64,000 nucleotides of DNA from assembly GCA_002726495.1 (NCBI GenBank), contig PBTH01000005.1, forward strand, positions 13,243 through 77,242. The letters are read 5' to 3'. This DNA is from Methanobacteriota archaeon. Lineage in GTDB: Archaea; Thermoplasmatota; Poseidoniia; Poseidoniales; Poseidoniaceae. The notes under the pieces were generated by a model, which searched no databases, was not told the DNA's origin, and worked only from the letters and a program-made list of their open reading frames with translations. Below are positions 21,887 to 57,812 of the stretch, in pieces (the stretch's first letter is position 1; each line of letters opens with the position of its first letter). The position numbers and the translations under genes are program-made.

Positions 21887-22977
21887 GCCTCCAAGGCATT
21901 CATGAAGGATGGCGCAGAGCCACCTCCATGCGCGAACATCCATCCGAACGTATTGATTTCCGTTCAGATACAGTAACGCAACCTACCAAGGCCATGAGAG
22001 ATGCAATGATGAGCGCTCCTGTTGGCGACGATGTTCTGGGTGACGACCCTACTGTTATTGCTTTACAAGAGCGTATGGCAACCATGTTTGACAAAGAAGC
22101 AGCCCTTTTCGTTCCATCCGGGACCATGTCAAACGCCATTGCCCTCAGGACCCACACGGTCCCTGGCGATGAGATCGTTTGTGACAAAACAGCTCACATT
22201 TATCGGTATGAGGGCGGCGGATATGCAGCATTATGCGGGGCTTCCATCGCGCTTGTTGACGGTGAAAAAAGCCTCATGACGCCCGAGCAGGTCAAACGGG
22301 CCATCCGCAAAGCCGAAGGTTCTGGAAGCCACTACCCCAATGGCAGTCTTGTATGCGTGGAAAATACAACCAATTTGGGAGGGGGTTCGTGTTACGATCA
22401 AGCAACCTTTGACCAAATTGCAATCCTTGCTAAAGCCAACGATTGTAAAACCCATATTGACGGCGCTCGGATTTTCAACGCTGCGATTGCGACAGGGGTT
22501 GACGTTGCTACCATGTGCAAACATTACGACTCTGTATCCGTGTGCCTTTCAAAGGGATTAGGCGCTCCTGTCGGCTCGGTATTGATTGGGTCTTCATCGT
22601 TTATTGCTCGTGCCCATCGGTGGAGGAAGTTGTTTGGTGGAGGTTGGAGGCAAGCAGGAATGTTAGCAGCTGCCGGCATGCATGCACTTGACCATCATGT
22701 GGAGCGGTTGGCGGAAGACCATCAGCGCGCGACAACGATTGCAAAGGCCCTTGACGGCATGAACGCCTTTTCCGTGGACATGAGTACCGTTCAGACAAAT
22801 ATGGTCTATGTGGAATGCACCAAACCTGCAATCGAGATTGCGTCCGAATTGCAGAAGAATGGAGTTGATGTATTCGATATCTCCCCAACTCACATTCGCA
22901 TTGTGGTTCATCTCCACATCACAGACGATGATGTCAATGCCTTTATCGCTCTCTGCAAGCAACTTTTTGACAGTTGA
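21883..22977 (+). CDS. ltaE: low-specificity L-threonine aldolase
   Basis: IDFRSDTVTQPTKAMRDAM, VGDDVLGDDPTV, VPSGTMSNAIAL and the PLP-lysine region SVCLSKGLGAPVGS. The GTGA overlap with pth2 copy 2 sets the start; ATG 21928 is an alternative. Confidence 0.85.
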   Translation: MSLQGIHEGWRRATSMREHPSERIDFRSDTVTQPTKAMRDAMMSAPVGDDVLGDDPTVIALQERMATMFDKEAALFVPSGTMSNAIALRTHTVPGDEIVCDKTAHIYRYEGGGYAALCGASIALVDGEKSLMTPEQVKRAIRKAEGSGSHYPNGSLVCVENTTNLGGGSCYDQATFDQIAILAKANDCKTHIDGARIFNAAIATGVDVATMCKHYDSVSVCLSKGLGAPVGSVLIGSSSFIARAHRWRKLFGGGWRQAGMLAAAGMHALDHHVERLAEDHQRATTIAKALDGMNAFSVDMSTVQTNMVYVECTKPAIEIASELQKNGVDVFDISPTHIRIVVHLHITDDDVNAFIALCKQLFDS

Positions 22978-23009
22978 GCCTTCATAATAGGTCGGCGTTA
23001 TTTCGTTGT

Positions 23010-25397
23010 ATGGAATTCCATTCATCAAATACGGAATGCAAATTTAATCCTGACTCAAACGAGATCGACATTGTTTGTGATTTATGCCAATCAATGATTG
23101 ACTTTGACCCCAAAACGGGTTGGTCTGCACCGCTCAATACCATTGAGCATGAGCGAGCAATAGCCCTGTTTGGCGGCCCCTCAGTCCCTGCTTCTTCGCG
23201 CTGGAAACGTTTGGCGAGTTCACTCGGAGAAACCGAACACGCGGGCTGGGCCCGACTGAGTTCGGATTGGGATGACCCGATCAAAACCCTCCCTTGCAGC
23301 GAGAGTGAGTTTGAGAGTTTACACCAATCCATCGTTCAAGGTTTTGCACTTACCAGTCAACAGCAGCGCTGGATGGCAAAAGGGATTGAGTTCTTCAATG
23401 GCTCTTTTTTCAGAATAATGGATGGGCGCCAGTATCTTGACGATGTTGAGCTTCCTTCTGTTGTCAGTTTGCGTTCTCTTTTTCCAGTTCTTGCAAGTAA
23501 AGATGTTCGCCGAGGGTGGGATCTTCCAGGCCTCATCGTAGGTCTTTCGTGCACAACTCCAATTTTGAATACCAATGGCGAAGGTGGCAATTTAAACGAC
23601 ATCTTGCGAGGCATAGAAACTGCAGATTCCAATTCACGCGTTATGATGGCGATGCTATCTTGGCTTTCAACCCGTGTCAAGATTGACCGTCTAAATGGCG
23701 ATGAAACCTCACCGCGTTCTGGCTATGTGTCGTGGGCGTACGATGTTCGTAGCGAGGTTCTAAGGCGCGGGGGGAGAATCGATAGAGCTAAACTTTCAGA
23801 AGCATTCTCAAATCATCCAGCTGGGTTGTTTGATTGTTATCAAGTTCCATGGATGCAGGAGTGGGACCGTTCGACAGAACACCACCTCCCCGCAAGGACA
23901 CTTGACTGGCCCCTTAGGGTTTCAGAAAAACACATCTCGTTTCGAGTCCGGAACAAATCGGGCAGAACTCGATTGGTTCAAGTCCCCCGGCAACCGGATC
24001 TTTGGGCGATTCTCATCTCCCTTTCCCTTTCCCCACTTAATTCCGAAGCGGGCAAGACGCTCCTGGGCCTCCAACACAATTGGAATATTGCCTACATCAA
24101 GAAGGACACTCCATCCCAGAACATGATTCGCTCATTGGAATTTTGCCATGAGATTCTAAACGGCCTCAGTGATCGTGTGTTCGTCAAGAATGCGGAGGTC
24201 TTGGTGTTTGGAAAACTGGGACATTGCTATGAGATCAAAGTGACTCATGGCCAACACGGCGCCCCATACCTCATCTCTCATTTCCGTGATTTTGGTCGTG
24301 GACAAAAACATCCGATTTGCATCCATAATGGTCAGTATCATTCCACTGTACCCCTTGGAGACACGCTAGGTTCAGTTATCCTTTCAATGTACAATGATAC
24401 TACGGCAACGCTGAACATCGGCAGTCTCAATGAGGTATTGATTTCCAATCCACCGTTTGGATTCCCTCGCCGCCCTGTAAACGAGGAATGGATCGCAGCC
24501 CTCAATCAAGATGCGCTCAAGGAATTGACATTTCATCAACATCACTGGGTCAGTCATCCTTGGTATGAAGTGCGGCCAAAAACACGCGAAGAGATCCCTG
24601 AAGCTCACCCCGGTCTTCGTGGGTTGCTAGCCCGTCAATTCAGGGGCCAGCAGCGTATTGAGAAACGTGATTATGAGTGGAATAAACGCTTCCAGGAGCA
24701 TTTCGAGGAAACAGGAGAATTTCCTTACGAAGAGGTTGTGTCGCGGTGGGCGAATCAAGTGCCTCCTTACATCAATAATCCACATTCATTCGTTGGAGGG
24801 CGTCCACACCTGCGCGCCCAGCAATACGGCCGGTGGGGCAGAATGGCCATGAGGTACCGCCACATTGCGATGCCCCGTAACAGAGACGATGTCCATGATG
24901 TGGGTGATATGCGTGACGGAGAACGCCGATGGTGCGAAGTTTATGCGCGTGTTTGGGAGGTACTGGTTTCACAACCACTCGGCTCAGATGTACAGATACC
25001 AACCGATTTAGGCGAAGCGCTTGAATTTAGCGATGTTGATTTGCAGGTGACCTTACGCAACACCATTGAGCGCAGATTTGTCACTGCAATCTCTCAATTG
25101 CTCGGATACGTTCGGGACGGCGAACAACAACACTCCGTTGTTTTCATTCGTAGGGACCATCCAAGGCCGAATGCACGCCTTCGCTTGACCGACCTTCTTG
25201 CCGAGACCCAACGGCGTCAAAATGTCAGAGGAGCCCCTCCACGGTGGTGGAATTATGTCGACGCTCGTCGCGCACCGGATGCAGTAGAATGGCATCCGTG
25301 GCAATTCCATGAGGATTTGAGAGACACGCCCCGTCAACAAGCCAGACAGCCGCGTTTGGACGATGACTTCAACGGACTTGGCGAATTGTTCGGTTGA
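23010..25397 (+). CDS. large orphan protein (about 795 aa), no recognised domain; possible N-terminal Cys-pair zinc ribbon
   Basis: Long uninterrupted ORF on the same strand as ltaE. The N-terminus has ECKF...IVCDLCQ, the C-terminal third is rich in Arg and Trp, and the central module is paralogous to 2451-2964. ATG 23010 is preferred over TTG 22974. Confidence 0.6.
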   Translation: MEFHSSNTECKFNPDSNEIDIVCDLCQSMIDFDPKTGWSAPLNTIEHERAIALFGGPSVPASSRWKRLASSLGETEHAGWARLSSDWDDPIKTLPCSESEFESLHQSIVQGFALTSQQQRWMAKGIEFFNGSFFRIMDGRQYLDDVELPSVVSLRSLFPVLASKDVRRGWDLPGLIVGLSCTTPILNTNGEGGNLNDILRGIETADSNSRVMMAMLSWLSTRVKIDRLNGDETSPRSGYVSWAYDVRSEVLRRGGRIDRAKLSEAFSNHPAGLFDCYQVPWMQEWDRSTEHHLPARTLDWPLRVSEKHISFRVRNKSGRTRLVQVPRQPDLWAILISLSLSPLNSEAGKTLLGLQHNWNIAYIKKDTPSQNMIRSLEFCHEILNGLSDRVFVKNAEVLVFGKLGHCYEIKVTHGQHGAPYLISHFRDFGRGQKHPICIHNGQYHSTVPLGDTLGSVILSMYNDTTATLNIGSLNEVLISNPPFGFPRRPVNEEWIAALNQDALKELTFHQHHWVSHPWYEVRPKTREEIPEAHPGLRGLLARQFRGQQRIEKRDYEWNKRFQEHFEETGEFPYEEVVSRWANQVPPYINNPHSFVGGRPHLRAQQYGRWGRMAMRYRHIAMPRNRDDVHDVGDMRDGERRWCEVYARVWEVLVSQPLGSDVQIPTDLGEALEFSDVDLQVTLRNTIERRFVTAISQLLGYVRDGEQQHSVVFIRRDHPRPNARLRLTDLLAETQRRQNVRGAPPRWWNYVDARRAPDAVEWHPWQFHEDLRDTPRQQARQPRLDDDFNGLGELFG

Positions 25398-26304
25398 GAC
25401 GGTTGTTGTGAACAAGAGCAGATACGGCCAGTAAGGCAATCACAGCCATCGGAGAAAGGAATGGGAGGCTATCATCTCCTTCTGATTCGTTGGATTCAGC
25501 AGGTTCATCAGGTTCTTCAGGGATTGGTATGATTTCGTAGATGAGGTGGATTTGGAGGTCGTTACCGTCGTGCGGCTCGGGAAGGGCGATCGTCGTATTT
25601 CCTTGCAATTCATCTCCCAATGCAATGATGTCACGAACAATGTGCGGATAGGTGCCAAGTCCGTTTGAACCTTCATCAAATTCCGCATGCCCTTCAACAA
25701 CCCACGCCGTAACATTAAGTGTTGAATTCTCAAGGTGCATTGCATCAATGTCAAGACTCCAAGTCACGATGCCTGACTGATCGTTGGTAGTCGAGGTCGG
25801 TGTCCAACTGAAGCTTGTTGTACCTTCGCCAAGTTGAAGGTCGTTAGAGGCAATGTTGGAGAATTCACTTTCCAACGAAGCCTCATCAGTAACGCTCCCG
25901 ATCTTTTTCATGGTACCGTTGAAGACAACGGCTGGAGGGGCGTTGCCCCCATACTTCGAGTTCCATCGCGCATCAATGTATTCAGAACCAAAAGGGTCTT
26001 GAGTTTCACCAATCGCTCTATGGACGTGGTATTGTTGAATATTTCCGCCGTTGGCCAGTACATCGTCCAATGCGTGTTCGACATCCACACAATTTTCACA
26101 CCACGTTGCGGTGTATACTTCAACAACGGCCGGAAGATCAGACAAATTTGTTGTGGAAACCGAGGTATTGTTTGCTTCGGCCCACTGTCCTCCAAACATC
26201 ATCCCATTGTTGAGCGGTTCAGCAGGCAATGCTGGTGCTACAGGGGCAAATAAGGCGAACAACATCAGCGTGGCTAACACCGGCATTACAGGGCGCATGA
26301 ACAC
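25369..26304 (-). CDS. exported, C-terminally anchored thioredoxin-fold protein (DUF1223-like CxxC)
   Basis: Signal peptide MFMRPVMPVLATLMLFALFAPVAPALPA. VVEVYTATWCENCVDVEHAL...QYHVHRAI...DPFGSEYIDARW...PPAVVFNGT parallels the DUF1223 pattern (VELFTSQGCSSCP...HVDYW...TPQ.VVNG). An acidic linker and the TM helix MAVIALLAVSALV follow. Confidence 0.55.
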   Translation of the reverse strand: MFMRPVMPVLATLMLFALFAPVAPALPAEPLNNGMMFGGQWAEANNTSVSTTNLSDLPAVVEVYTATWCENCVDVEHALDDVLANGGNIQQYHVHRAIGETQDPFGSEYIDARWNSKYGGNAPPAVVFNGTMKKIGSVTDEASLESEFSNIASNDLQLGEGTTSFSWTPTSTTNDQSGIVTWSLDIDAMHLENSTLNVTAWVVEGHAEFDEGSNGLGTYPHIVRDIIALGDELQGNTTIALPEPHDGNDLQIHLIYEIIPIPEEPDEPAESNESEGDDSLPFLSPMAVIALLAVSALVHNNRLNRTIRQVR

Positions 26305-26343: not shown

Positions 26344-27504
26344 TTACTCTTCTGCACCATCTTCTACACCCTCATCCTTGGATGAGGAATCGAAGTCGGT
26401 TTCTTCAAGAGCTGAGAACATCTGTTGAGCTTCTGGTAGTTGACCGGTGGTGGCCTTGTGTTCGATGTCTTTCAAGCGATTTGTCAAGCCTGCTGGTGAA
26501 AGTCCGACTGCTCCAGCAACGCGTCCCAGGTTGCCATGGTTCAAACCAATCAAACACAGTGCGGCATACATGGCACATCCTGCAATAAAGGGGATGGCGA
26601 CGTTTGTCAGTGGCCCTTCAGCAGTTGGCTCTTCAAGGTCATTCATGATGTTCCAGAACACGGTATTGACGAGTTTCAACTCTTCCTCGTTGAGTTTTTC
26701 AGCAAGAGCGCGGTCAAGGTTCTCAGCGGCGATATCAAGTTTGTCAGCTCGCAATGCAGCTCGTGTGATGCCTTTTGGAGCTGCGACCCATTTTTGTCGT
26801 AGGCGGGCTTTGTAGGACTTCATGATGGTGGATTTGGCGTTCTTGAATTGTTGTTCAGTTATGTTGTACTGAGCCATCACCACTTGGGGGTTAAATGCAG
26901 GTGTGCGGAGCCACTCATGAGAGATGACTGCGATGGCCAATGCAATGATTTGCAGGTTGTCTTGATGTGTTTCCCCTCGCAATTCACGCTTCTTACGAGT
27001 GATGGATGTCTTGGGGCAGCTGAGTTTGGCCTGTTCACCGGGAGTCAATGTTCGACGGACTGCTTCTTGCTCAGGTGACAACTTTCGGCAAGCAGCGTCA
27101 ACAAGATGAGTGGTTGCTCGTGCCAAATTGTCTCCAAACATTCGGGCAAGGGTCAATTTGACCTCGCGACACATAGGGTCTTTCTCACGCTGACTGGAAC
27201 GGTCAGCACGACCCAAGCGAATAAACAAAGCACGCTGGGCTGATGTAAGGCGTCTGCCAGCGTGGTCGGTTCGGTCACCAAAGGGATTCATTCGACCGCC
27301 TTGGGCTGCATTTGGGTTGTTGGCGAAAACATCCAATGCTTCCTGTGTGCGCTCTTCACCCATGCTGATGGAGCTGTTGGTGTCTGCATCATTGGTATAG
27401 TTGTCAATTGCAAGGCCGCATGCCTGGCAAGTCATCTCTGCTCGGGCATCATCAACATCAAATTCAGTTCCGCCGCAATCTTCGCATTCATGTTTGTATT
27501 CCAT
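26344..27504 (-). CDS. tfb: transcription initiation factor B (TFB/TFIIB-like), divergent and extended
   Basis: N-terminal Zn ribbon CEDCGGTEFDVDDARAEMTCQACG. B-reader/linker-like RRLTSAQRALFIRLGRADRSSQ. Two cyclin-like repeats (LARATTHLVDAACRK; IAGCAMYAALCLIGLNHGNLGRVAGAVGLSPAGLTNRLKDI). It also has internal insertions and an acidic tail. Confidence 0.7.
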   Translation of the reverse strand: MEYKHECEDCGGTEFDVDDARAEMTCQACGLAIDNYTNDADTNSSISMGEERTQEALDVFANNPNAAQGGRMNPFGDRTDHAGRRLTSAQRALFIRLGRADRSSQREKDPMCREVKLTLARMFGDNLARATTHLVDAACRKLSPEQEAVRRTLTPGEQAKLSCPKTSITRKKRELRGETHQDNLQIIALAIAVISHEWLRTPAFNPQVVMAQYNITEQQFKNAKSTIMKSYKARLRQKWVAAPKGITRAALRADKLDIAAENLDRALAEKLNEEELKLVNTVFWNIMNDLEEPTAEGPLTNVAIPFIAGCAMYAALCLIGLNHGNLGRVAGAVGLSPAGLTNRLKDIEHKATTGQLPEAQQMFSALEETDFDSSSKDEGVEDGAEE

Positions 27505-27870: not shown

Positions 27871-30800
27871 TTGTCGGATTCAAGAATAAGTTCCGAATTT
27901 ATCCCCGCTGGTCGCGGCCTTCCGTCATGGGCTTTGGAGGCTCTTTGCGCTAAGGACTCAGCGACAGTTATGGTCATTCATCCAACGGAACAACATCGTA
28001 AAGACACCCTCGAATCTCTTCATCAACGAGGAAGTTCTCCGAACCCCCAACTTCATGTCACACTCAATCAACTTCTGCGTTTACTGCACGTTGATTTTCG
28101 TTTGCCCGTTCTTTTGGATGACGAAGCCTCATCATTTATGGGGATTCATAAGCGATGTGCTGTTGCAGCTGAACAACATAAATTCCCTCTGCTTCATACC
28201 GGTGCAAACGGCAATTGGACTATGAAAAAAACACAACGCCTGCAGCACTTGCATGGCCACTTAAGTTCCCTCCTCAATCCGTTTGATTGGGAGAACAACC
28301 CAGGAATTGATGCTTACGAGAAGATTCTTCGTTCGTTTGAACGGGAGCATGGAGGTACGCTTCCAGTCCTCCTTCCGCGGCATGTCCTTGGGGCTCTTGA
28401 CGGTTCAGATACAGTACCGTTTCACTTCTCTCATCTCGACGGTATTCTCCTTCTTGATCACGCTCCAGATTTCACAGAACTTGAGCGCGCTATTCTCATT
28501 TCACTCTCACGCTTCATACCGGTCCATCAATTGATTAATCCGGGTTCATTTCGCCTTGGCCATCATGGAGCATTTCTCGTCGATGAGTATCCTTGTGACC
28601 AAGAGTCACTTCCGAGTTGGGTGCCGCAACATACAGTTTGGACACCAAGCGATGATTCATGGAGGTCGCCTATTGGGTTTGAACACGATACCAACTTTAC
28701 GCGTATAGCAATTGATGACCGAGTCCAAACCGTGAACGCTGCACTTGAATTCATCGATCAATATCGTCGTCAATCTTCGGGAAGAGTCCTCATCATTGAC
28801 GGCGCTGCCAGAGACCGAGCACACCTTTGGTCTCAATCACTTGCGACATTGGGCATCCAATGGAATGCAGCGTCGGATTCCCTGAATGGGCAGCCTCTGT
28901 TTCACGCTCTTTTGCAAGCAGCTCGCTTGTCTCAAGGAATGAGTGCATGGGGGCTCAACGCTCTTTACTCAATGATGGATTCTACATCTTTACCTCTTGC
29001 AGAAGACATGTATCCGGATTTGTTGCATCCAACAGAGGAATCATGGCGGCCAAGACCGCATCAGGACGTCCTGCAAGGTATGGCTCAGCAATTTCACGTA
29101 CTTGGTGGCCCTGGCGCCATTTCACGATGGGTTGGTGCGCTTTCTCGTGCAAAACCTTCTGCTACCGACCGAAATCCTAGGGAGCGCGAGCAAGCACTTG
29201 AAGAAACGCAATGGTGGATTTCATGCCTGCTCCATTCGTGGAAACCATTGCTCATGGGCGAGGACATTCACATGTTGAAGTACGATGTATTTGGATGCAG
29301 TTCTGGAGCTGAACTCCCCCTCCCTCCTTCTCCCGATAACGGGACTTCATGGCTCATACAATTTGTAAAATGGCTTGACTTCGATGAACTATCACATCGA
29401 AAGGCCCCCTTTGATCGAAGTTTGGGGACATTCCACACCCTTTTGGAATCCATTCAAAGAATTCAATCTACAATGAAACAAGAGGGGGTATCGTCGTCCT
29501 TTGATGGTACTGAATTTATTGAATTGCTCACCTATATTGGGCAGATCACGACGCTTTCAAGCACGCACATCAAGACATCAGGGATTGAAGTATTGACTCC
29601 AAAAGAAGCGATAGGACTTGAAGCAGATTTGATTATTTTAGCAGGACTTGATGTTGACGCATGGGTGATGAAATCTTCAGTTGTTCCATGGTTGGATGCA
29701 AAGGCTCAACTCGAGCTTGGCATGTTTCAAACAGATTTACTCATACGTCAGGGGCGTCATCACATCAAGCATTTACTCAATGCCGCGCCTCTGGTGGTCA
29801 TGTTTGATTCTACACATGAAGATGGAGGCGGGCCAAGCGCCCCCTTTGGAGAATGGTTGGCCGATGTACGGCGTTCAGGCGAATGGGATGCGATGCGCTC
29901 ACCCCCTCCATTCATACCAACTTCAACCTATCAAGGTGAATCTCCCTCAAGGCGTTGGGAATGGAAATCAAGAGAACTCGGGCAAGGCAGTTGGCTTTGC
30001 CCTAGAACCTCATGGGTTGCGGATGAAGACGATAAGCGTCGCACCATTCGTCATGGGCCCTTTCCTCGCGATGCGCGTCAACAATTAGGTATGGACCTCA
30101 AACATTCCATTCAGCCCCGAACAACAAGCAATCATTCAGCAGCGCTGATCAACTCCTTTGAGGCATCAATTCAGAACGACCGTAAGCAGCGAGAACCCTC
30201 GCTGAAAGCAATTGAAGCAGGCACTTCGCTTTCTTGGGAGCATCGTTCACATCTTCTCCACATTGACACCTTGAATCTCAGGCCCACTCATTCTTCGTCA
30301 AAAGCCCCTGGCTCCACGGCAGCCCAATGGCCTCACCTTGGCCACAGGGAAGAAAAGGTCGTTTCTCTGAGTGTTGACCCGCGACCACTCCCCGCATATT
30401 CCAACGAAGCTCTCTCCATGAATCACCGGTTTGGCATGATCGATGCCTCGCTTAACCGAGGTGTTTGGTCACCAAGTCGTCTTGAGAAGTGGCTTCAGTG
30501 CCCCAGAGGCGCATGGGTCACCCAATTTCTGCATGCACAGAACGAGGATGAAGGTATTTCAGAAGATGTAGATTTCAGAATTCGCGGTATACTTGCACAT
30601 GAAGTCGCGGGGGCTCTTCTTACCGGCCATGGTGTGTCGGTGAGTGGGCCTGACTTGGAACGAATCGAACCTCTTCATCAAGGCCCGATGGGGGATCTTG
30701 CCGCAGGGTGGGATACGATATTGGCCTATCTCAATGAGCATGTACAATGGCTTGGACGCCATAATGCGGTATCTGTCCACCGAACCCGAGACCTCATTGA

Positions 30801-31605
30801 TGCAACCCCTGCACAATGGAATGAATACCAAGAATCGGGTGAGCCGATTTCACCAAGAGGGCGCCTGTTCCGAATGTATGAATCTGACCTCACACTGGAA
30901 CATGCAGCGCCGATAGCATGCGAGTGGAAAGCACTCCTTGGGAAAAAGAGCGTCACCATCGATGCGTCAGATGACAACGACCAACCCTCATCGTTCGAGA
31001 TGTTTGGTTATGCAGACCGAGTTGATGTTGTTGTTCTCAACGAAGAACAGCAACGGATCCTCACAGAAGCAGGGTTGCTTGATGTTTCATCCGAAGCCCC
31101 AAAACCAGCTCCGTTGGATGGAACTCCATATGCAGCAAAGCGACTGGTCATCATTCGCGACCTGAAAACAGTCCGAGGCCCGGCTATCAAAAAGCGAGGG
31201 CTACGTCATTTACGTTGCCTGTTTGAAGAATTACAACTTGCATTGTATGCAAGGGCATGGGAGATCACTCACCCAGGAGACCGAGTGATCGGTGTCGGTG
31301 CTACTGAAATCGGAGAGTTAACAACTCATTATGTCGAACTGGATGATGACATTGCCTCCATTAGTGAAGAATTACAAGTGGGCGTCACCACCCGACACCT
31401 TCCACTTCATTTCCCAAGTGTTGAAGCAAAAGGTCAGTACCGTTCATCGTTCCGAACATGGATGTATGAGCGACTCAAAACCGCTCAACGCGGCATTAGT
31501 GCAGCGAATGACGGCCAAGTCAACCCGACGCCGGGAACACATTGCAACTATTGTGTCGTGCGTCAATCTTGCTCGGTATCATCGTTTTCAGGAGGGTCCT
31601 ATTGA
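27871..31605 (+). CDS. AddB-like subunit of a helicase-nuclease complex: no P-loop, C-terminal Cas4/AddB-type 4-Cys PD-(D/E)XK nuclease
   Basis: C-terminal nuclease motifs occur in canonical order: SPSRLEKWLQCPRGAWVTQFL (first Cys), RGILAHEVAGALL, GYADRVDVV, LVIIRDLKT (D-x-K), ELQLALYARAW (QxxxY) and CNYCVVRQSC (CxxCx5C). I see no GxxxxGK(T/S) motif anywhere. TTG start preceded by GGGGGT. The stop overlaps the next gene's ATG. Confidence 0.75.
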   Translation: MSDSRISSEFIPAGRGLPSWALEALCAKDSATVMVIHPTEQHRKDTLESLHQRGSSPNPQLHVTLNQLLRLLHVDFRLPVLLDDEASSFMGIHKRCAVAAEQHKFPLLHTGANGNWTMKKTQRLQHLHGHLSSLLNPFDWENNPGIDAYEKILRSFEREHGGTLPVLLPRHVLGALDGSDTVPFHFSHLDGILLLDHAPDFTELERAILISLSRFIPVHQLINPGSFRLGHHGAFLVDEYPCDQESLPSWVPQHTVWTPSDDSWRSPIGFEHDTNFTRIAIDDRVQTVNAALEFIDQYRRQSSGRVLIIDGAARDRAHLWSQSLATLGIQWNAASDSLNGQPLFHALLQAARLSQGMSAWGLNALYSMMDSTSLPLAEDMYPDLLHPTEESWRPRPHQDVLQGMAQQFHVLGGPGAISRWVGALSRAKPSATDRNPREREQALEETQWWISCLLHSWKPLLMGEDIHMLKYDVFGCSSGAELPLPPSPDNGTSWLIQFVKWLDFDELSHRKAPFDRSLGTFHTLLESIQRIQSTMKQEGVSSSFDGTEFIELLTYIGQITTLSSTHIKTSGIEVLTPKEAIGLEADLIILAGLDVDAWVMKSSVVPWLDAKAQLELGMFQTDLLIRQGRHHIKHLLNAAPLVVMFDSTHEDGGGPSAPFGEWLADVRRSGEWDAMRSPPPFIPTSTYQGESPSRRWEWKSRELGQGSWLCPRTSWVADEDDKRRTIRHGPFPRDARQQLGMDLKHSIQPRTTSNHSAALINSFEASIQNDRKQREPSLKAIEAGTSLSWEHRSHLLHIDTLNLRPTHSSSKAPGSTAAQWPHLGHREEKVVSLSVDPRPLPAYSNEALSMNHRFGMIDASLNRGVWSPSRLEKWLQCPRGAWVTQFLHAQNEDEGISEDVDFRIRGILAHEVAGALLTGHGVSVSGPDLERIEPLHQGPMGDLAAGWDTILAYLNEHVQWLGRHNAVSVHRTRDLIDATPAQWNEYQESGEPISPRGRLFRMYESDLTLEHAAPIACEWKALLGKKSVTIDASDDNDQPSSFEMFGYADRVDVVVLNEEQQRILTEAGLLDVSSEAPKPAPLDGTPYAAKRLVIIRDLKTVRGPAIKKRGLRHLRCLFEELQLALYARAWEITHPGDRVIGVGATEIGELTTHYVELDDDIASISEELQVGVTTRHLPLHFPSVEAKGQYRSSFRTWMYERLKTAQRGISAANDGQVNPTPGTHCNYCVVRQSCSVSSFSGGSY

Positions 31606-34600
31606 TGGTTGATTTCAACAACAGCCAACGCCTTGGCTTGGATTTGGATAAGCACATCGCACTGGATGCCGGCGCAGGTACGGGGAAGACCACTGTTATG
31701 GCGGAACGCTATGTTCAGCACTTGTTAGCCACTGAACAACGTGCGACTCATTTGACGCCTCCAGGGCCTCGTGTGCCTTTGGTTGGTCACGGCTCTTTGC
31801 GTGCTCCCAAAAGGGAGCGAACCGATGTAGAGGCATGGACTGGGCTGCTGCCCTCAGAAGTTGTCGCGATTACATTTACTCGTAAGGCAGCTGCAGAACT
31901 CAAAGCAAGAATACGAAACCGTCTTGCTCAAAGCAGAGCACACCCTCCAAAAGAAGATGACATCGATGGTATATTTGACCCGAGGGTCCGTGAGGATGCA
32001 GATGTTGAAATGCTTCTGTCAAGTATTGACGAAGCACCGATTTCAACAATTGATGCCTTCCTTCATCGCCTGGTTCGCCCGTATATCGACCTCGTAACGC
32101 TCTATCCAGCCAGCGATCAAGTTCCTGAAGAGCGGGCTCCCTTGATGATGCGCGATACCATGCACGCTCTTTGGCGTATTCGCTCAACAGATGACGCCTC
32201 GGATGCGGGAGTTTTGAACCATCAACATGAATTCATACAATCTCGCAATCGTCTTGTGACTCGGTTGGGCGGACAAGAACCCGCAGAGGTCGTTATCAAC
32301 GGTTTGTTGAATACATCCCTTTTCGTTGAACAATCACATCGTTCCATGATTCAGCGTGCTCAAGATTTGGGATTCTCTTGGAACGGCAGAGGGCCTGCGC
32401 CTGTTACGCTGCTTTTGGACATGATTGCAGAACCCATTGCAGACGACCTCCCGAGTTTCATGAACCGGTTTGCCCCTCTGTTGCAATCATGGATTGGACT
32501 GTTTTTGCCTCATCTCTCAAGATGCACTGAGCCTGTAGAGAATGAATTGGGCACATCATTAACCCGTTTCAACCACCTTGCTCGGCTGGTGAGCACTGGC
32601 ATTCCAGAACGACCGGCTGACCAGTTGGTTTGGATGTGGAAAGCGATGATCGGCCTCGCAGGTTCGTCAGGGCTCAAAGCAAAACCTTGCGGTTATTTCC
32701 CACGTAACAACCTCCCTTCAACAGAAAAATGGCCTGGTGGGTTGCTTTCCAAAACAGGCGTAAAAGGCATGAACGGTGGAGACCGTGACGACCTTTTTGC
32801 GCAAAGCGTGTATCTGCAAAGCGAAATGAAGAGGGAACTGCATTCACCAGTTGGAGTTCTCATTCGTCTTTTGGCGGAATCAGCGTTTTTACTCAATCCG
32901 GGCGATGGGTACGATGGCATGCCGTTGGACTCTCCCCTTCGCTTGACCCCCTTGCCACCAACAATTGGCCCTACGCCTGTTGAAGGAGGTACGTATGTAT
33001 CAGGCGATCTGCAAATGGAGATCTTGAGTGACCTCATCACGGTTCACAAAGGCTGTCATCAAATTCTCGCAAGAAGAAAATCATTGGAAGGGATGCATGA
33101 CTTTGACGATATTCAGAGGTTTGCAGCAGACCTGCTTCTTGCTAGATGCCCGGATACATGCCGCCATCTCTACCCTCCCGAAGTCATTGACATCTTGGAT
33201 GGTTTAGGTGATGAACCATGGAGTGACGACCATATTTCTAGAGCGATTACGTTGTTGAACGACCAACCGTCACTTCAAGCAGACCTTCATCGCAGGTTTG
33301 CGATTTTGGGGGAACTTCGGCGCCAATTCCGAGCGTTTATCATCGACGAATATCAAGATACAAACCCATCCCATTACCGTCTTCTCGCCCGTCTATGGGG
33401 CCGTAGAGCGCGACACAGTGACGACCCTCCACGGCCTCTTGGTGCTTGGGACCCAACGGTCTGCATCGTCGGGGATATGAAGCAAAGCATCTACAGATTC
33501 CGACAAGCGGAAGTCTCGGTAATGCGACGTGCAGTTGCAATGATTCGAAACTGTAACGTCGTTGAAGAAAATGAAACAAGCCTCAATCATCTGCGCAGTA
33601 GTGGAGAAGGAAGAGACCCACGGCCTGTAGGGGCTGGTGGTGAGACGGGCTCTTACAGCAATGAACACGAGGTGAGAGAATCTGCGCCTCATAGTTATGT
33701 TCCCTATGCTTGGGAGGACGGCCAAACGACTTCAACCATAACCGGTGAACGCCTTGAACGAAGGCAACAAGGCCACATAGATTTGACTTCAAATCACCGC
33801 ACTCGCCCGAATTTAATGGAGACGATGAACGACATTTTTGATGAAGTATTTGCGCCTCACCACCATGCTTTACCAGGAGATTGGCATGCTGAATCACAAC
33901 GCCTCCATCCAGCCCGAGTCACCGAAGATCCCGGCGTATTGGAATGGCTTTTACCCATTCAAGGAGCCTTACAAAACGCCTCGTTTGACCTCGATGTCCC
34001 CTTGAATACATTTGAAAATCCAAATGCGACGAGCGTTCAACTGGAGCACGAGCTTCTTTCACATCGTCTCCACTCCTTGCTCAACTCTGAGAATTCCCGA
34101 GTTTGGAATCCAGATGAAGGAGATTGGCATAATGTTGAGGAGACGGGTGTTGAAATCCGACCTGAGGATGTTATGATTCTCATCAATTCACGACGGCATC
34201 TTCCTGATCTTCTTGAACGGCTGAGGGCGCGTAATATTCCCGTTATGGCCGATAGGCAGGGATTGTTGCTCATGCAACCGGTCATACAACCGCTGATGGC
34301 TGTATTGGAACTCATGGCTCATCCATATTCCACAAAGGCAGGAATTGAACTTGCTCGCTCGGCAGTGATTGGGATGAGTGAAACTCAAGTTCATTCAGCG
34401 TTCAGTCAACTGGATGATGAGCGATCAACATGGCAGGTTCTTCTTGAACACGCACCAAATGAAGCGATTGCCTCACTTCTCGCCCACCTGCATCAACTCG
34501 CTTCTTGGGGGGCCATTTACGATGTCATAGATGCAATTCTTGACCATTCTGATTTGCTGGTTGCCTTTTGCAGCGATGCAGAGCGGCAACATGCAGAGGC

Positions 34601-36545
34601 ATGGCTCGGTATGATTCACAGCATCGGTAAAGATACTGGGCATTCAATCACAGCCATCTACCGCCGGCTCCAAGATTTGATTGGGCTTGAAAAGAAAGGC
34701 CCTCAAGCCATCAGCAAGCCAACCAAAGACGCCGTGCAAATCATGACCATCCATGGTGCAAAAGGACTTCAGGCACCTGTTGTCATCGTCTCAGGTATCT
34801 TTACAGCAGGTATGGCAGATGTCACAACATCGATCAAAGACAATGTGTTGGTTACGCCTCAAGTGGTCTCGGGGAGGATTCAACCTTGGCTTGCCCACGA
34901 CCGCCCTTCAGATGGTTTGTGGGCCTTTGCGAGTCAAATGAATACCGCTCAAGATAAGGCTGAACTAAGAAGGAAATTCTATGTCGCACTCACTCGTGTT
35001 AAAGACCGCTTGATCATCACCGGTTCACCGACCAAGAAATCCATGTTTGACAATGAAACCGGAGCGCTTTCCCTTACACTGCAACCCGACCCAAGGACGA
35101 TGGGACGAATGTGGGTTGAAGGGTTACGTCGGGCTGCCTGGGCCGCGGGTGGCGCCGGCTCACCGTGGCTACTTCCCGGTGATATTGAGGACGCAGACCT
35201 TGGAGTCTACAAGCCCTCTAAAGCTAGCCTCAACATCAATCCAAGTGAACTGCTGACCAACAGCGCACTTGGTGAACATGGTGTTTCCGGAATTCGCCTC
35301 TATCATCACCCCGATTGTTTCTCAGAAGTGACACCGCCCTCCCCTCAACAGCGCCTTAGGATGTTGGAAACCCATCTCGCCTCCGCTGAGGTTGTTGAGG
35401 ACGGAATGAACGCCCCTCTCCAGCCGCTATGTGAATCGATCAAAGGGGCTGCTCACCATTTGGACGCCACGAATACCTGCCCTCGTCGGTATTGGCTTGA
35501 ACACATCAAAGGTTGGACTTCTGAACCCTTTTCACTCCCCTTGGAAGAGAAGGGATCTATCAAGAAACGATGGCCATTGCCTACAGAATTTGGCTTAATG
35601 ATGCACCGGGTCGTTGAAATTGGACTTCGCAATCCCTTGCAATTTGGAGGCAAAACCCCAGCGTTGAGTCCAGATTGGCATCACTCCAACGAAGGAGAGC
35701 TGGCCTCTGAAACAACCGTAGGCAGGGTCATGGCTGAATTCGGTTATGGGGAAACACAATCCAAAGACAGCATTGAATTCAATTGGAGAGAGCGCCTGCT
35801 CCATCTGAGTTCACTCATCGACAAGGGGCTTCTTGGAAGATGGGTTGGAGGAGAGCATCACCACGGGTTCTCTGTTGAAGCAGTACGCACGGAACTTCCG
35901 TTCATCCACTCTCATCCTGTTCCTTTGGATTCATTCACTCGTTCGCGTTTTACCCCAAGAGGTCCCGTGGAGACTGTTCAAATCGAGCGTGTTGATATGA
36001 ACTTTAACGGGCGAGCAGATCTCGTTTTGGCTCTTGCAGACGAACAACAACGCGGGTACCTCCAAGTTGTAGATTTGAAAACAAAGGGCTGCATGGCCCC
36101 ATTCAATCAACGCGAACCTGAAAATGGACATGCCTTGCAAGCGATTGGCCCTGAGACAACAGACCCCCTCCCTCAATCCGAAGAAGAAGCCCAGATTCTT
36201 CACGAACACCGCCTTCAACTCACCCTCTATTCGGTCGCACTTGAAGCGGTTGAACTTCTCAAACCAGAGGAAGAACGTCGCCAAATTCTCCCCCCAGCCT
36301 TGTTGTTGGGTGCGAACGGCCGGATTGTCCAAATGACCAGAGAAGAATTTGAGCAAGCCAAGAGTGACCTCAACGCTCATCTGCATTGGCGGACCATGAT
36401 GCATCTTACAGACGGAGTAGATGAACCAAAACGTTTGGAATCAGGGTCCTCAGCCTGTGAAGGTTGTCCGTATTACAAAGGAGACGTTCGCAGATGCGGT
36501 CCAATAGGGGAATCATTGGGTTTCATTACGGCCGATGAGGCTTGA
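31605..36545 (+). CDS. AddA/RecB-like SF1 (UvrD-family) helicase fused to a C-terminal 4-Cys PD-(D/E)XK nuclease
   Basis: SF1 motifs: I LDAGAGTGKTT, Ia VVAITFTRKAAAEL, II FIIDEYQDTN, III VGDMKQSIYRFRQA, IV LTSNHRTRPNL, V MTIHGAKGLQAPVVIV, VI FYVALTRVKDRLIITG. Nuclease motifs: NTCPRRYWLEHI, GLMMHRVVEIGL, GRADLVL, LQVVDLKTKG, LQLTLYSVAL and CEGCPYYKGDVRRC. The ATG at 31605 overlaps the TGA of the upstream gene (TGATG). Confidence 0.85.
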   Translation: MVDFNNSQRLGLDLDKHIALDAGAGTGKTTVMAERYVQHLLATEQRATHLTPPGPRVPLVGHGSLRAPKRERTDVEAWTGLLPSEVVAITFTRKAAAELKARIRNRLAQSRAHPPKEDDIDGIFDPRVREDADVEMLLSSIDEAPISTIDAFLHRLVRPYIDLVTLYPASDQVPEERAPLMMRDTMHALWRIRSTDDASDAGVLNHQHEFIQSRNRLVTRLGGQEPAEVVINGLLNTSLFVEQSHRSMIQRAQDLGFSWNGRGPAPVTLLLDMIAEPIADDLPSFMNRFAPLLQSWIGLFLPHLSRCTEPVENELGTSLTRFNHLARLVSTGIPERPADQLVWMWKAMIGLAGSSGLKAKPCGYFPRNNLPSTEKWPGGLLSKTGVKGMNGGDRDDLFAQSVYLQSEMKRELHSPVGVLIRLLAESAFLLNPGDGYDGMPLDSPLRLTPLPPTIGPTPVEGGTYVSGDLQMEILSDLITVHKGCHQILARRKSLEGMHDFDDIQRFAADLLLARCPDTCRHLYPPEVIDILDGLGDEPWSDDHISRAITLLNDQPSLQADLHRRFAILGELRRQFRAFIIDEYQDTNPSHYRLLARLWGRRARHSDDPPRPLGAWDPTVCIVGDMKQSIYRFRQAEVSVMRRAVAMIRNCNVVEENETSLNHLRSSGEGRDPRPVGAGGETGSYSNEHEVRESAPHSYVPYAWEDGQTTSTITGERLERRQQGHIDLTSNHRTRPNLMETMNDIFDEVFAPHHHALPGDWHAESQRLHPARVTEDPGVLEWLLPIQGALQNASFDLDVPLNTFENPNATSVQLEHELLSHRLHSLLNSENSRVWNPDEGDWHNVEETGVEIRPEDVMILINSRRHLPDLLERLRARNIPVMADRQGLLLMQPVIQPLMAVLELMAHPYSTKAGIELARSAVIGMSETQVHSAFSQLDDERSTWQVLLEHAPNEAIASLLAHLHQLASWGAIYDVIDAILDHSDLLVAFCSDAERQHAEAWLGMIHSIGKDTGHSITAIYRRLQDLIGLEKKGPQAISKPTKDAVQIMTIHGAKGLQAPVVIVSGIFTAGMADVTTSIKDNVLVTPQVVSGRIQPWLAHDRPSDGLWAFASQMNTAQDKAELRRKFYVALTRVKDRLIITGSPTKKSMFDNETGALSLTLQPDPRTMGRMWVEGLRRAAWAAGGAGSPWLLPGDIEDADLGVYKPSKASLNINPSELLTNSALGEHGVSGIRLYHHPDCFSEVTPPSPQQRLRMLETHLASAEVVEDGMNAPLQPLCESIKGAAHHLDATNTCPRRYWLEHIKGWTSEPFSLPLEEKGSIKKRWPLPTEFGLMMHRVVEIGLRNPLQFGGKTPALSPDWHHSNEGELASETTVGRVMAEFGYGETQSKDSIEFNWRERLLHLSSLIDKGLLGRWVGGEHHHGFSVEAVRTELPFIHSHPVPLDSFTRSRFTPRGPVETVQIERVDMNFNGRADLVLALADEQQRGYLQVVDLKTKGCMAPFNQREPENGHALQAIGPETTDPLPQSEEEAQILHEHRLQLTLYSVALEAVELLKPEEERRQILPPALLLGANGRIVQMTREEFEQAKSDLNAHLHWRTMMHLTDGVDEPKRLESGSSACEGCPYYKGDVRRCGPIGESLGFITADEA

Positions 36546-37152
36546 TGGCAGACAATACAAGCGTACCGTTCCACCCCTCTTTCGCCCCTGTTTGGATGGC
36601 CTTGACATCTTCAAAACCAGCGTCTTCTAGACCTTTTACCCAAGTGTCAATTGAGAGTGTAGTCATGTGAACATTGAGTGATTGCGGCCAATCATGACTT
36701 TCTGGATTCTCCTTGTAATGGTCCATACCGATGACCATTTTCCCTCCAGACTTCATCCAATTATCGTGTATGTTGCGCAAGAAATCTATTGGTTGTTTAA
36801 GGTAATACAAACATTCCATGCTATGAATGAGGTCAACGGGTTGTTCGGGGCTCCATTCGGGGAGTTGTCCAATGCAATAAGTGCCATTTGGGTCAATTTC
36901 CCTCGCCCTTTCAACCATCGCCACAGCGCCATCAATTCCCAAGGCGTTGTTGCACAATGGGTGTTCAGCGAACTTGCGAACCACCCACCCGTTTCCACAT
37001 CCGATGTCAATTGCGGAAAACGGTTTGTCAACACCTTCCAGAAGGAGGTTTAGCATGACATCCACGCTGGGCGCATGACCGCGCTCCATACCCGCATCCT
37101 TGCCCTTTTCAGCCCATTCGTGGAACACTTCGGTCGCTTTACGTTGGTCCAT
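36526..37152 (-). CDS. class I SAM-dependent methyltransferase
   Basis: Motif I AIDIGCGNGWVVRKF, post-I LGIDGAVAMV, and DLIHSMECLYYL plus GGKMVIGMDHY. ATG 37152 is preferred because the ORF-track start at 37230 would overlap the divergent pip gene. Confidence 0.7.
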   Translation of the reverse strand: MDQRKATEVFHEWAEKGKDAGMERGHAPSVDVMLNLLLEGVDKPFSAIDIGCGNGWVVRKFAEHPLCNNALGIDGAVAMVERAREIDPNGTYCIGQLPEWSPEQPVDLIHSMECLYYLKQPIDFLRNIHDNWMKSGGKMVIGMDHYKENPESHDWPQSLNVHMTTLSIDTWVKGLEDAGFEDVKAIQTGAKEGWNGTLVLSAIKPHRP

Positions 37153-37228
37153 GCCGATGTCTAGAAGAGCCTGTCTTTGAATGTACGCATGACGAAAAGA
37201 ACATTCAATGCCTTGCATTCGGAAGTTC

Positions 37229-38191
37229 ATGCTTGATACAGTGACGACCCTTGACGATGTCCTTTATGCCCCTTGTGAGCCTTACCAAACAGGAACGCTT
37301 TCTGTAAGTGATGTCCACACAATTGCTTGGGAGACAAGCGGTAATGCAAGTGGCATTCCAGTTGTTGTAATTCATGGAGGGCCAGGTGGGGGCGGCCAAC
37401 CTTCGTACCGACAATATTTCGATCCAGATGCATACAACATCGTCCAGTTTGACCAGCGAGGATGTGGCCAATCAACCCCTCATGCTGAATTGGAGGACAA
37501 TACGACTCAAGCACTGGTCGGTGATATTGAAACCCTTAGGACGCATCTAGGTATTGAGTCGTGGCATGTCTTTGGGGGTTCTTGGGGCTCGACACTCTCT
37601 CTTGTTTACGCTCAAGAACACCCATCAAGAGTTCTTAGTTTGATTCTCAGGGGCATTTTCATGTGCAGAAAAAGCGAACTTCGTTGGTTCTATCAAGACG
37701 GGGCAAGCCACATCTTCCCCGACGCCTTCGCGCCGTACAGAGAACACATCCCTCTTGCGGAACAAGACGACCTCATCAAAGCATATTATCGCCGCTTGAC
37801 AAGCCAAGATGCCGAGGTTCGTAGAGCGGCAGCGAAGGAATGGACGCGTTGGGAAATGGCCACCAGTCGGCTGTTCCCCGACCCGAGTTATCTTGAAAAA
37901 GCAGAGGACCTTGATTTTGCAGTTGCCTTTGCACGAATTGAATGCCATTATTTCATCAATGCAATTTTCTTGGAGGAAGCCCATATCTTGAACCATACTG
38001 AGGCAATCCAATCCATTCCAACGGTCATCGTTCAAGGGCGCTATGATGTTGTTTGCCCAGCGCGCAGTGCATGGGAATTGCACCAAGCATTGCCCAACAG
38101 CAAACTCACGATCGTCCCCGACGCAGGCCATTCAATGGGCGAAGTTAGCATCGCTCGAGAATTGGTTGCAGCAACCGATGCCCTGCGTTAA
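37229..38191 (+). CDS. pip: proline iminopeptidase (prolyl aminopeptidase, S33)
   Basis: LYAPCEPYQTGTL, IPVVVIHGGPGGG, VQFDQRGCGQSTP, the nucleophile elbow FGGSWGSTL and the catalytic His in DAGHSM. ATG 37208 is an alternative start. Confidence 0.85.
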   Translation: MLDTVTTLDDVLYAPCEPYQTGTLSVSDVHTIAWETSGNASGIPVVVIHGGPGGGGQPSYRQYFDPDAYNIVQFDQRGCGQSTPHAELEDNTTQALVGDIETLRTHLGIESWHVFGGSWGSTLSLVYAQEHPSRVLSLILRGIFMCRKSELRWFYQDGASHIFPDAFAPYREHIPLAEQDDLIKAYYRRLTSQDAEVRRAAAKEWTRWEMATSRLFPDPSYLEKAEDLDFAVAFARIECHYFINAIFLEEAHILNHTEAIQSIPTVIVQGRYDVVCPARSAWELHQALPNSKLTIVPDAGHSMGEVSIARELVAATDALR

Positions 38192-57610: not shown

Positions 57611-57812
57611 GGAGCACACCGGACTTTCAGGGTATTTGAAAGGGGCTCCTTCTTGTCTAAACAAGAATTCATTGTATTTCTCTAAAATTATTGAAAAATT
57701 GCCTAAATATTCAGTTCGAAGTCACCGTTGAGGTGGTGAAAAACGCCTTTGACCACCGAGGACTCACACAACACTCAAACCATAAGTGTCTGCCGTTGGA
57801 TAAGTGGTCAAT

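Follow-up and report, generated by a model that had tools for sequence, protein, structure and literature searches.

Sequence analysis of a 64,000-nt window from an archaeon of the Poseidoniaceae (assembly GCA_002726495.1, contig PBTH01000005.1, positions 13,243 to 77,242 of the forward strand) identified two adjacent, co-oriented genes whose predicted products resemble the two subunits of the helicase–nuclease AddAB. All coordinates given here are positions in this window. Open reading frame (ORF) 1 occupies 27871..31605 on the + strand, starts with TTG and encodes 1244 amino acids (aa); its product, the AddB-like subunit, is predicted to be a dead superfamily 1 (SF1) helicase-like scaffold with a C-terminal RecB-family nuclease. 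ORF2 (31605..36545, + strand, 1646 codons, ATG start) encodes the AddA-like subunit, which combines an SF1A UvrD-type helicase, predicted to be active, with a C-terminal RecB-family nuclease. The B-type gene lies upstream of the A-type gene, as in AddAB loci.

The two genes overlap by one base, as the TGA of ORF1 (31603-31605) shares its A with the ATG of ORF2 (31605-31607). The complete coupling signal (31590..31607, + strand) consists of an AGGAGG sequence at 31590-31595 followed by the TGATG stop/start overlap at 31603-31607. The original prediction for this DNA had described two very long, translationally coupled genes, and the frames, their 1244 and 1646 codons and the TGA/ATG overlap were all recovered as claimed. 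The arrangement was also found to be conserved: 75 of the 78 related junctions overlap by 1 nt (TGATG or TAATG) or 4 nt (ATGA, TTGA or GTGA), and most of the 78 have a GGAGG-like motif 5′ of the overlap. The conserved overlap and motif imply that the two proteins are co-translated in fixed proportion.

In the homologue alignments, E9, P18, and W20 of ORF1 and F4 and N5 of ORF2 were invariant. Because the N-termini are conserved within the first ten positions, the TTG and ATG starts are considered correct, rather than M34 of ORF1 or the TTG at 31542 for ORF2. Scans for sigma-70 promoters and terminators gave results at chance level and are uninformative for an archaeon.

Helicase and nuclease domains of the two predicted subunits

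Pfam analysis of ORF2 detected UvrD-helicase (E value, 2e-33), UvrD_C (1.5e-15), and PDDEXK_1 (1.2e-10), which bears out the UvrD and PD-(D/E)XK domains proposed for this protein. The seven SF1/UvrD helicase motifs previously listed for ORF2 were all found in its translation, each in its reported place, and their key residues are invariant: K28, T29, D581, E582, Q584, R633, R732, G1054, and R1131 are shared by all 42 homologues aligned. Walker A or motif I (AGAGTGKTT) is located at 31668..31694 on the + strand, with K28 and T29 in 42/42 sequences, and Walker B or motif II (IIDEYQDTN) at 33339..33365 on the same strand, with D581 and E582 likewise in 42/42. Among the curated NCBIfam models, the best matches were addA_Gpos (146 bits), recB (129 bits), and addA_alphas (128 bits), and the best match among PDB sequences was AddA (3u44_A; E value, 8e-18). 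ORF2 has the composition of an A subunit: its SF1A helicase, in which all ATPase motifs are intact, is N-terminal, and a RecB-family nuclease forms the C-terminus. Judged from its sequence, ORF2 is a complete SF1A UvrD/AddA-type helicase joined to a RecB-family nuclease.

More than 1000 homologues of ORF2 were retrieved. The best 120 share 44–100% identity with ORF2 and are nearly all full-length (approximately 1630–1660 aa; four are shorter), and the cluster representative P0001 is 100% identical to it, whereas looking up the exact ORF2 sequence in an assembly index gave no match. They carry names such as [quoted passage not shown] or the JGI name “exoDNAse V beta subunit.”

ORF1 was far harder to classify. 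Its only Pfam match was PDDEXK_1 (E value, 4.8e-11) at the C-terminus, where this domain had been expected. A sequence search against PDB sequences returned no match, and a profile search against PDB returned only a marginal match to Cas4 (4r5q; E value, 0.0075), in the CPRxxW region around the first cysteine. The NCBIfam model addB_alphas matched with an E value of 0.004. When 8000 word-sharing candidates were scored in a profile search for distant relatives, two marginal matches (E values, 1.4e-4 and 6e-3) were obtained outside the family and none was convincing, which is a weak negative. The homologues of ORF1 form 79 clusters, all of 1127–1312 aa and from Poseidoniales, and are labeled “hypothetical protein” or “PD-(D/E)XK nuclease family protein.”

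An AlphaFold2 model of ORF1 (residues 45–1244) was built from a 46-sequence alignment and is of good confidence, with a mean predicted local distance difference test score (pLDDT) of 80.2 and a predicted template modeling score of 0.61. In a Foldseek search of this model against PDB, four chains of Bacillus subtilis AddB ranked first. The best of them, 4cei_B, aligned over the full length with an E value of 2.8e-17 and template modeling (TM) scores of 0.50/0.52; AdnA (1.2e-12), UvrD-type helicases (approximately 1e-9), and RecC (approximately 1e-7) followed. The identification of ORF1 with AddB is based on this match of the predicted fold, as the sequence alone gave no AddB signal. The AddB/AddA assignment of the original prediction is supported by these searches, in which the ORF1 model was closest to full-length AddB and ORF2 was closest to AddA, both among curated models and among PDB sequences.

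The motor of ORF1 appears to be dead. Its degenerate Walker A site (27970..28011, + strand) reads MVIHPTEQHRKDTL, with the family consensus LVIHPxExxRxxTL, and the position reads (L/I)V(I)HP(T/N)E..R..TL across the family. GxGK[ST] was found at this N-terminal site in 0/46 homologues, in agreement with the earlier statement that ORF1 has no P-loop. A putative relic of motif II (28516..28569, + strand), IPVHQLINPGSFRLGHHG, lines up with IIDEYQDTNPSHYRL of ORF2, the acidic D-E pair being lost. The hhalign comparison paired “PIHQLxNPGSFRL” of ORF1 with the ORF2 motif II “IIDEYQDTNPSHFRL,” a weak profile–profile match with a probability of 10%. In this relic, H219, G225, R228, G230, and G233 are invariant. 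Because ORF1 has no Walker A site and its motif II relic lacks the acidic pair, ORF1 is read as a dead motor, as in AddB and RecC. A degenerate helicase-like fold followed by a C-terminal RecB-family nuclease with intact motifs is what characterizes a B subunit, and the predicted structure of ORF1, in which a motor-dead domain of helicase shape precedes the nuclease, follows the AddB design. Its nucleotide site, however, is lost completely, as otherwise seen in RecC (PMC3321194).

Both nuclease domains retain the motifs required for catalysis. The nuclease domain of ORF1 (Pfam PDDEXK_1; 30466..31602, + strand) has its catalytic residues at D1049 (31015-31017), D1097 (31159-31161), and K1099 (31165-31167) and in QLALY (31234-31248), and D1049, D1097, K1099, Q1122, and Y1126 were each present in 46/46 sequences. 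The corresponding residues of the ORF2 domain (35457..36542, + strand; AlphaFold2 pLDDT, 84.8) are D1472 (36018-36020), D1490 (36072-36074), K1492 (36078-36080), and QLTLY (36216-36230), and D1472, D1490, K1492, Q1538, and Y1542 were each present in 42/42. The pattern D...D-x-K...QxxxY is therefore kept by both nucleases in every homologue. Only motif-level similarity was detected when the two domains were compared by BLASTP, which indicates that they are not recent duplicates.

Each domain is also bracketed by one cysteine upstream and three downstream. In ORF1 these are C877 (30499-30501; 46/46), C1225 (31543-31545; 45/46), C1228 (31552-31554; 45/46), and C1234 (31570-31572; 44/46), and in ORF2 they are C1292 (35478-35480; 40/42), C1618 (36456-36458; 41/42), C1621 (36465-36467; 40/42), and C1631 (36495-36497; 36/42). 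All eight codons lie on the + strand, and the two sets are 86–100% conserved. The cysteine set on both nucleases, which had been pointed out before, is thus real and shared by homologues (44–46 of 46 for ORF1 and 36–41 of 42 for ORF2). At the sequence level, the set of ORF1 corresponds to the “iron staple” of AddAB, in which 1+3 cysteines enclose the B-subunit nuclease. When the ORF2 nuclease model was searched with Foldseek, the best matches were AdnA (6.7e-8), AddB (2.7e-6), and Dna2 (4e-6), followed by the Cas4-family protein ACE1 and Cas4; AddA was a weaker match and RecB was not among the significant matches. The ORF2 nuclease model is accordingly closest to nucleases with a metal cluster of the iron–sulfur (Fe-S) type. 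By analogy with these enzymes, the 1+3 cysteines of each subunit most likely surround a 4Fe-4S cluster.

As far as sequence can tell, four-cysteine sets on both subunits distinguish this pair from every characterized enzyme of the AddAB class. The suggestion that the double Fe-S-type composition is unlike textbook AddAB therefore holds against characterized enzymes, but a four-cysteine AddA-type nuclease is not confined to this pair. All four cysteines are aligned in the AddA-like outgroup proteins P0278, P0285, P0299, P0315, P0326, and P0423, and some of the four-cysteine outgroup proteins bear the JGI label “helicase/nuclease subunit A.”

Conservation, neighborhood and origin

To determine the distribution of the pair, one genome per GTDB species was scanned and 372 matching stretches were confirmed; the locus counts given here refer to the best 79 loci. 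All 79 belong to Poseidoniales-type genomes or metagenome-assembled genomes (MAGs), including CM001443.1, published in 2012 as the first Marine Group II (MG-II) genome. The host is a Poseidonia-like MG-II archaeon, and its closest relatives are MAGs labeled Poseidonia or Poseidoniaceae, with ORF1 at 70–78% identity. The order ORF1–ORF2 is kept in the 79 loci and in three more distant ones, wherever both genes are present.

The surrounding genes are conserved as well. A block consisting of a beta-eliminating lyase gene, an 807-aa gene, a 311-aa gene, a Zn-ribbon gene, ORF1, ORF2, a methyltransferase gene, an alpha/beta hydrolase gene, and a coiled-coil gene is kept in most of the 79 loci, almost everywhere the contig reaches. 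Homologues at 28–32% identity keep the pair and part of the block, and the most divergent ORF1 homologues (28–29% identity) still keep the lyase, ORF1, and ORF2. On a 1.93 Mb contig of one distant relative, the block is preserved all the way from Trm1 and MCM to phosphatidylserine decarboxylase. The window itself also encodes MCM, GatE, a PAC2-family protein, a Trm1-type tRNA methyltransferase, and phosphatidylserine decarboxylase. The archaeal context described in the original prediction was confirmed for MCM, GatE, and phosphatidylserine decarboxylase, while its “TFB-like” gene had no more than a weak zinc ribbon of the TFIIB type, which scored below the curated cut-offs.

The GC content is flat across the window, and the codon usage of ORF1 and ORF2 correlates with the rest as well as that of the flanking genes does, so the comparison of codon usage with the flanks gave a native result. 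Since the synteny is conserved, the stop/start overlap is intact, the GC content is flat, and the codon usage is native, chimerism and a recent island are excluded. The recurrence of the same gene order in 79 Poseidoniales loci likewise upholds the earlier argument that the pair is not a mis-binned bacterial fragment.

The origin of ORF2 was addressed by an exhaustive HMMER search with residues 447–1646 against 1.84 billion representatives. Full-length family members were found down to 349 bits (32–33% identity), whereas beyond the family near-full-length scores fall to at most 113 bits, the proteins being 900–1350 aa long and matched in the helicase part only. The eight nearest scanned proteins outside the family all scored best against AddA models, and ORF2 is approximately 400 aa longer than the outgroup AddA-like proteins, the extra length being spread over four regions. 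With this drop from 349 to 113 bits, no close bacterial donor for ORF2 was found among the representatives searched. Together with the exclusion of a chimera or recent island, the lack of a close bacterial relative suggests an old acquisition or a long divergence in the ancestor of the group. A horizontal origin, as proposed in the original prediction, is therefore plausible but old and its donor is not identifiable, and the other proposal, a stand-alone defense module, is disfavored by the housekeeping synteny. On this sequence evidence, the pair is an old, vertically inherited core pair of Poseidoniales and not an island or a chimera.

Several neighbors and related loci deserve description. 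The “TFB-like” gene (26344-27504, - strand) scores 23 bits for an N-terminal TFIIB-type zinc ribbon, for which the cut-off is 29, and the remainder of the protein is unrecognized. This Zn-ribbon gene is fast-evolving (24–75% identity), yet it stands divergently beside ORF1 in 61 of the 79 loci, and it could be a dedicated regulator of the pair. A class I SAM (S-adenosylmethionine) methyltransferase gene (36526-37230, - strand) is convergent with ORF2, overlaps its 3′ end by 20 nt, and keeps its position next to ORF2 in 67 of the 79 loci; its product is of the small-molecule type (trans-aconitate/BioC-like) and not a DNA methylase. The 807-aa gene (22974-25397, + strand) and the 311-aa gene (25369-26304, - strand), found upstream of the pair in most Poseidoniales loci, had no match in Pfam, NCBIfam, or PADLOC. 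Farther away in the window, a giant 2784-aa ORF (49310-57664, - strand) had zero Pfam matches, and a 1434-aa protein (5588-9892, + strand) with FG-GAP repeats is probably a surface protein.

Two related contigs are unusual. A distant pair was found at L083:6510-14677 (ENA ERZ26167216), where the ORF2 homologue has 32% identity and the genes overlap by 4 nt; a peptidase M20 gene, phosphatidylserine decarboxylase, and an Obg-like GTPase follow, and the contig measures 3.0 Mb compared with approximately 1.9–2.1 Mb for the near-complete Poseidoniales records found in this analysis. Contig NZEQ01000040.1 (L022), labeled as Verrucomicrobiales bacterium, contains the lyase, 807-aa, 311-aa, and Zn-ribbon genes and ORF1 at 49% identity. 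Because it carries the Poseidoniales block, this contig is probably mis-binned in its MAG.

Relation to known helicase–nucleases

Of the enzymes compared, AddAB of B. subtilis (3U44, 4CEI) is the closest overall, being the best structural match of ORF1 and the best sequence match of ORF2. The shared features are the B-then-A gene order, a single active SF1A motor with a nuclease in the A subunit (ORF2 being predicted active), and a B subunit composed of a helicase-shaped dead motor and a RecB-family nuclease with the 1+3 cysteine staple. Unlike the B. subtilis enzyme, ORF2 is longer by approximately 400 residues distributed over four regions, and its nuclease also carries four cysteines, whereas in B. 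subtilis the Fe-S nuclease is present only in AddB (PMC3378879). A Walker A site is kept in B. subtilis AddB but lost in ORF1; this feature of the B. subtilis type, which is not universal in the AddAB family, is absent in 46/46 ORF1 homologues.

The mycobacterial enzyme AdnAB (6PPJ, 9NP6) is also a two-subunit motor–nuclease with nucleases on both subunits, and its motor-dead-like subunit AdnA carries an Fe-S cluster. It was the second-best structural match of ORF1 and the best of the ORF2 nuclease domain. However, AdnAB has Walker A and B and binds nucleotide in both subunits, as described for AdnA (PMC3321194; PMC13000450), whereas ORF1 has no Walker A site and has lost the D-E pair. The Fe-S cluster of AdnAB was described in AdnA (PMC13000450), whereas the cysteine set of the Poseidoniales pair is found on both subunits.

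RecBCD of Escherichia coli resembles the pair in that RecB is an SF1A helicase with a nuclease, and RecC, like ORF1, is a helicase-like scaffold without a nucleotide site (PMC3321194). An Fe-S cluster is not described for RecBCD (PMC3321194), and among the flanking genes examined there was no RecD-like or further helicase gene beside ORF1–ORF2 that could provide the third, SF1B subunit. The dead nuclease domain typical of this class was not seen in the pair either. The nuclease-like domain of RecC is inactive, whereas ORF1 keeps all catalytic residues.

An archaeal counterpart was found in Halogeometricum sp. (GCA_031624495.1, JAMQOP010000005.1; L084:4635-11747), where a 1121-aa AddB-like gene is directly followed by a 1248-aa AddA-like gene. 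Its B-like subunit resembles ORF1 in having the 1+3 cysteines and in lacking a Walker A site. In contrast to the Poseidoniales pair, AddA and AddB models recognize it (addA_Gpos, 374 bits; addB_alphas, 69 bits; E value, 2.4e-19), its A subunit lacks the cysteine set, and its neighborhood looks mobile, with an IS240-type transposase, a ParA-like gene, and a BrxC/BrxD-like ATPase. The Poseidoniales pair is far more diverged than the Halogeometricum pair and is fixed in a housekeeping block. PMC2887965 cites Cromie (2009) for the earlier suggestion that addAB was transferred into archaea. The original prediction treated AddAB as a bacterial machine, but the Halogeometricum pair shows, in line with this suggestion, that AddAB-type pairs are not strictly bacterial.

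Hudaiberdiev et al. [quoted passage not shown] They share this domain combination with ORF2, but they are single proteins that occur stand-alone or in restriction-modification/Dcm/Vsr contexts (PMC5704561). ORF2, by comparison, has an obligate-looking dead-helicase partner and a housekeeping context.

No description of the pair in Poseidoniales or MGII was found in the literature searched (on AddAB, RecB, and DNA repair). The Poseidoniales pair is a highly diverged AddAB-type machine that is unannotated as such. The surprise is limited by the earlier suggestion of an AddAB transfer into archaea, by the haloarchaeal pair, and by the four-cysteine AddA-like proteins found elsewhere.

Proposed function and its alternatives

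We consider it likely, with a probability of roughly 75%, that ORF1 and ORF2 are the two subunits of an AddAB-type helicase–nuclease heterodimer and that this enzyme belongs to the vertically inherited core of Poseidoniales (Marine Group II). The architecture of the pair, its two intact nucleases, its single motor, and its fixed co-translation would fit unwinding and resection of double-stranded DNA ends by analogy with AddAB. Several observations weigh against this assignment. ORF1 scored 15 bits against a cut-off of 487 (AddB models TIGR02773 and TIGR02786), and ORF2 scored 146 and 128 bits against cut-offs of 708 and 861 (AddA models TIGR02785 and TIGR02784), which places the pair outside the curated sequence families. 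The structural alignment of ORF1 with AddB shows only 11–12% identity, and its TM score of approximately 0.5 is modest for a multi-domain protein. Four cysteines in this nuclease fold can hold Zn or 2Fe-2S as well (PMC3466216; PMC4176176). In addition, AddB of B. subtilis keeps a Walker A site that is tied to Chi recognition (PMC3321194) and ORF1 has none, so any Chi-type control would work differently or be absent.

The most serious alternative is that the pair acts primarily against viruses and plasmids, either by degrading linear foreign DNA from its ends as RecBCD does or in the manner of UvrD–Cas4 fusions. RecBCD and AddAB do degrade phage DNA. The haloarchaeal AddAB-like pair has a BrxC/BrxD-like ATPase and a transposase as neighbors. 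In bacteria and mesophilic archaea, fusions of UvrD-type helicases with Cas4-like Fe-S nucleases are found in defense contexts (PMC5704561), and ORF2 gave generic matches of 63 bits to Gabija GajB helicase models. However, these matches are weaker than those to AddA and confined to the generic helicase core, and ORF1 had zero PADLOC matches. The neighborhood consists of housekeeping genes fixed across the order (MCM, GatE, the lyase, the hydrolase, and phosphatidylserine decarboxylase) and not of a variable island, the adjoining methyltransferase is not a DNA methylase, and the composition and codon usage are native. The known defense systems considered (PADLOC models; Gabija and UvrD–Cas4 restriction-modification islands) were rejected, as ORF2 reached at most 63 bits, the neighbors are housekeeping genes, and these systems require the partners GajA, Mod/Res, or Dcm/Vsr. 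The conserved housekeeping synteny favors a core DNA-end-processing enzyme over a stand-alone defense module, and a primarily defensive role is unlikely.

Less probable still is a role in processing replication-associated flaps or stalled forks in the manner of Dna2, an Fe-S helicase–nuclease. As a match to the ORF2 nuclease model, Dna2 comes close to AddB (4e-6 and 2.7e-6, respectively), and MCM is encoded 11 kb upstream, a linkage kept in the 1.93 Mb contig of the distant relative. Dna2, however, is a single polypeptide with an SF1B (5′→3′) helicase, whereas ORF2 is of the SF1A UvrD/AddA type; a two-subunit enzyme with a dead-helicase partner is the design of AddAB, AdnAB, and RecBCD, and the MCM linkage is loose, with unrelated genes in between. 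The chance that the locus is an artifact, either bacterial DNA that entered an archaeal contig through mis-assembly or mis-binning or a decaying, functionless relic, is close to nil, even though its domain content is typical of bacteria and the related contig L022 is labeled Verrucomicrobiales. Dozens of independent assemblies share the junctions at both ends of the locus, and L022 itself contains the Poseidoniales block. Neither GC content nor codon usage changes at the borders, and both frames are intact, with catalytic residues invariant down to 28–44% identity. An artifact, chimera, or relic was rejected on the recurring junctions, intact frames, and invariant catalytic residues.

If the pair is an AddAB-type heterodimer, a mechanism can be proposed by homology with B. 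subtilis AddAB, which is also the basis for the proposed complex formation, strand polarity, metal content, any Chi-like regulation, and the hand-off to RadA. The ORF1–ORF2 complex would bind a double-stranded DNA end. The SF1A motor of ORF2, the sole active one, would hydrolyze ATP, translocate 3′→5′ on one strand, and unwind the duplex, and the tracked strand would be fed into the C-terminal nuclease of ORF2 itself. The displaced 5′ strand would pass along the motor-dead scaffold of ORF1 into the ORF1 nuclease, while the 1+3 cysteines would staple each nuclease fold, most likely around a 4Fe-4S cluster. The expected outcome is a DNA end resected to leave a 3′ tail for use by the archaeal recombinase RadA, which would be the partner because the host is an archaeon. 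As with RecBCD and AddAB, the complex would probably also degrade linear foreign DNA as a side activity.

In the textbook view, double-strand breaks of archaea are resected by Mre11–Rad50–HerA–NurA. It is tentatively proposed that the remodeled AddAB-type machine, with two Fe-S clusters, is the main or only route of long-range end resection in Poseidoniales and feeds RadA in place of HerA–NurA; this is possible, but we would not call it probable. If so, the order as a whole would have had a core archaeal/eukaryotic-type repair module displaced by a bacterial-type one, and a main resection machine with two Fe-S clusters would link the repair of breaks with iron supply and oxidative stress.

Poseidoniales are the most abundant archaea of the surface ocean, and the analysis indicates that an AddAB-type machine is fixed throughout this entire order, which is ecologically dominant and uncultured. 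Because the B subunit of the machine is annotated only under the names “hypothetical protein” and “PD-(D/E)XK nuclease family protein,” surveys of genomes for repair pathways would overlook it. With a cysteine staple on each nuclease and no nucleotide site left in the B subunit, the pair would be useful for probing the roles of those features. It would also be a naturally occurring example of an end processor of bacterial type that has to work together with RadA.

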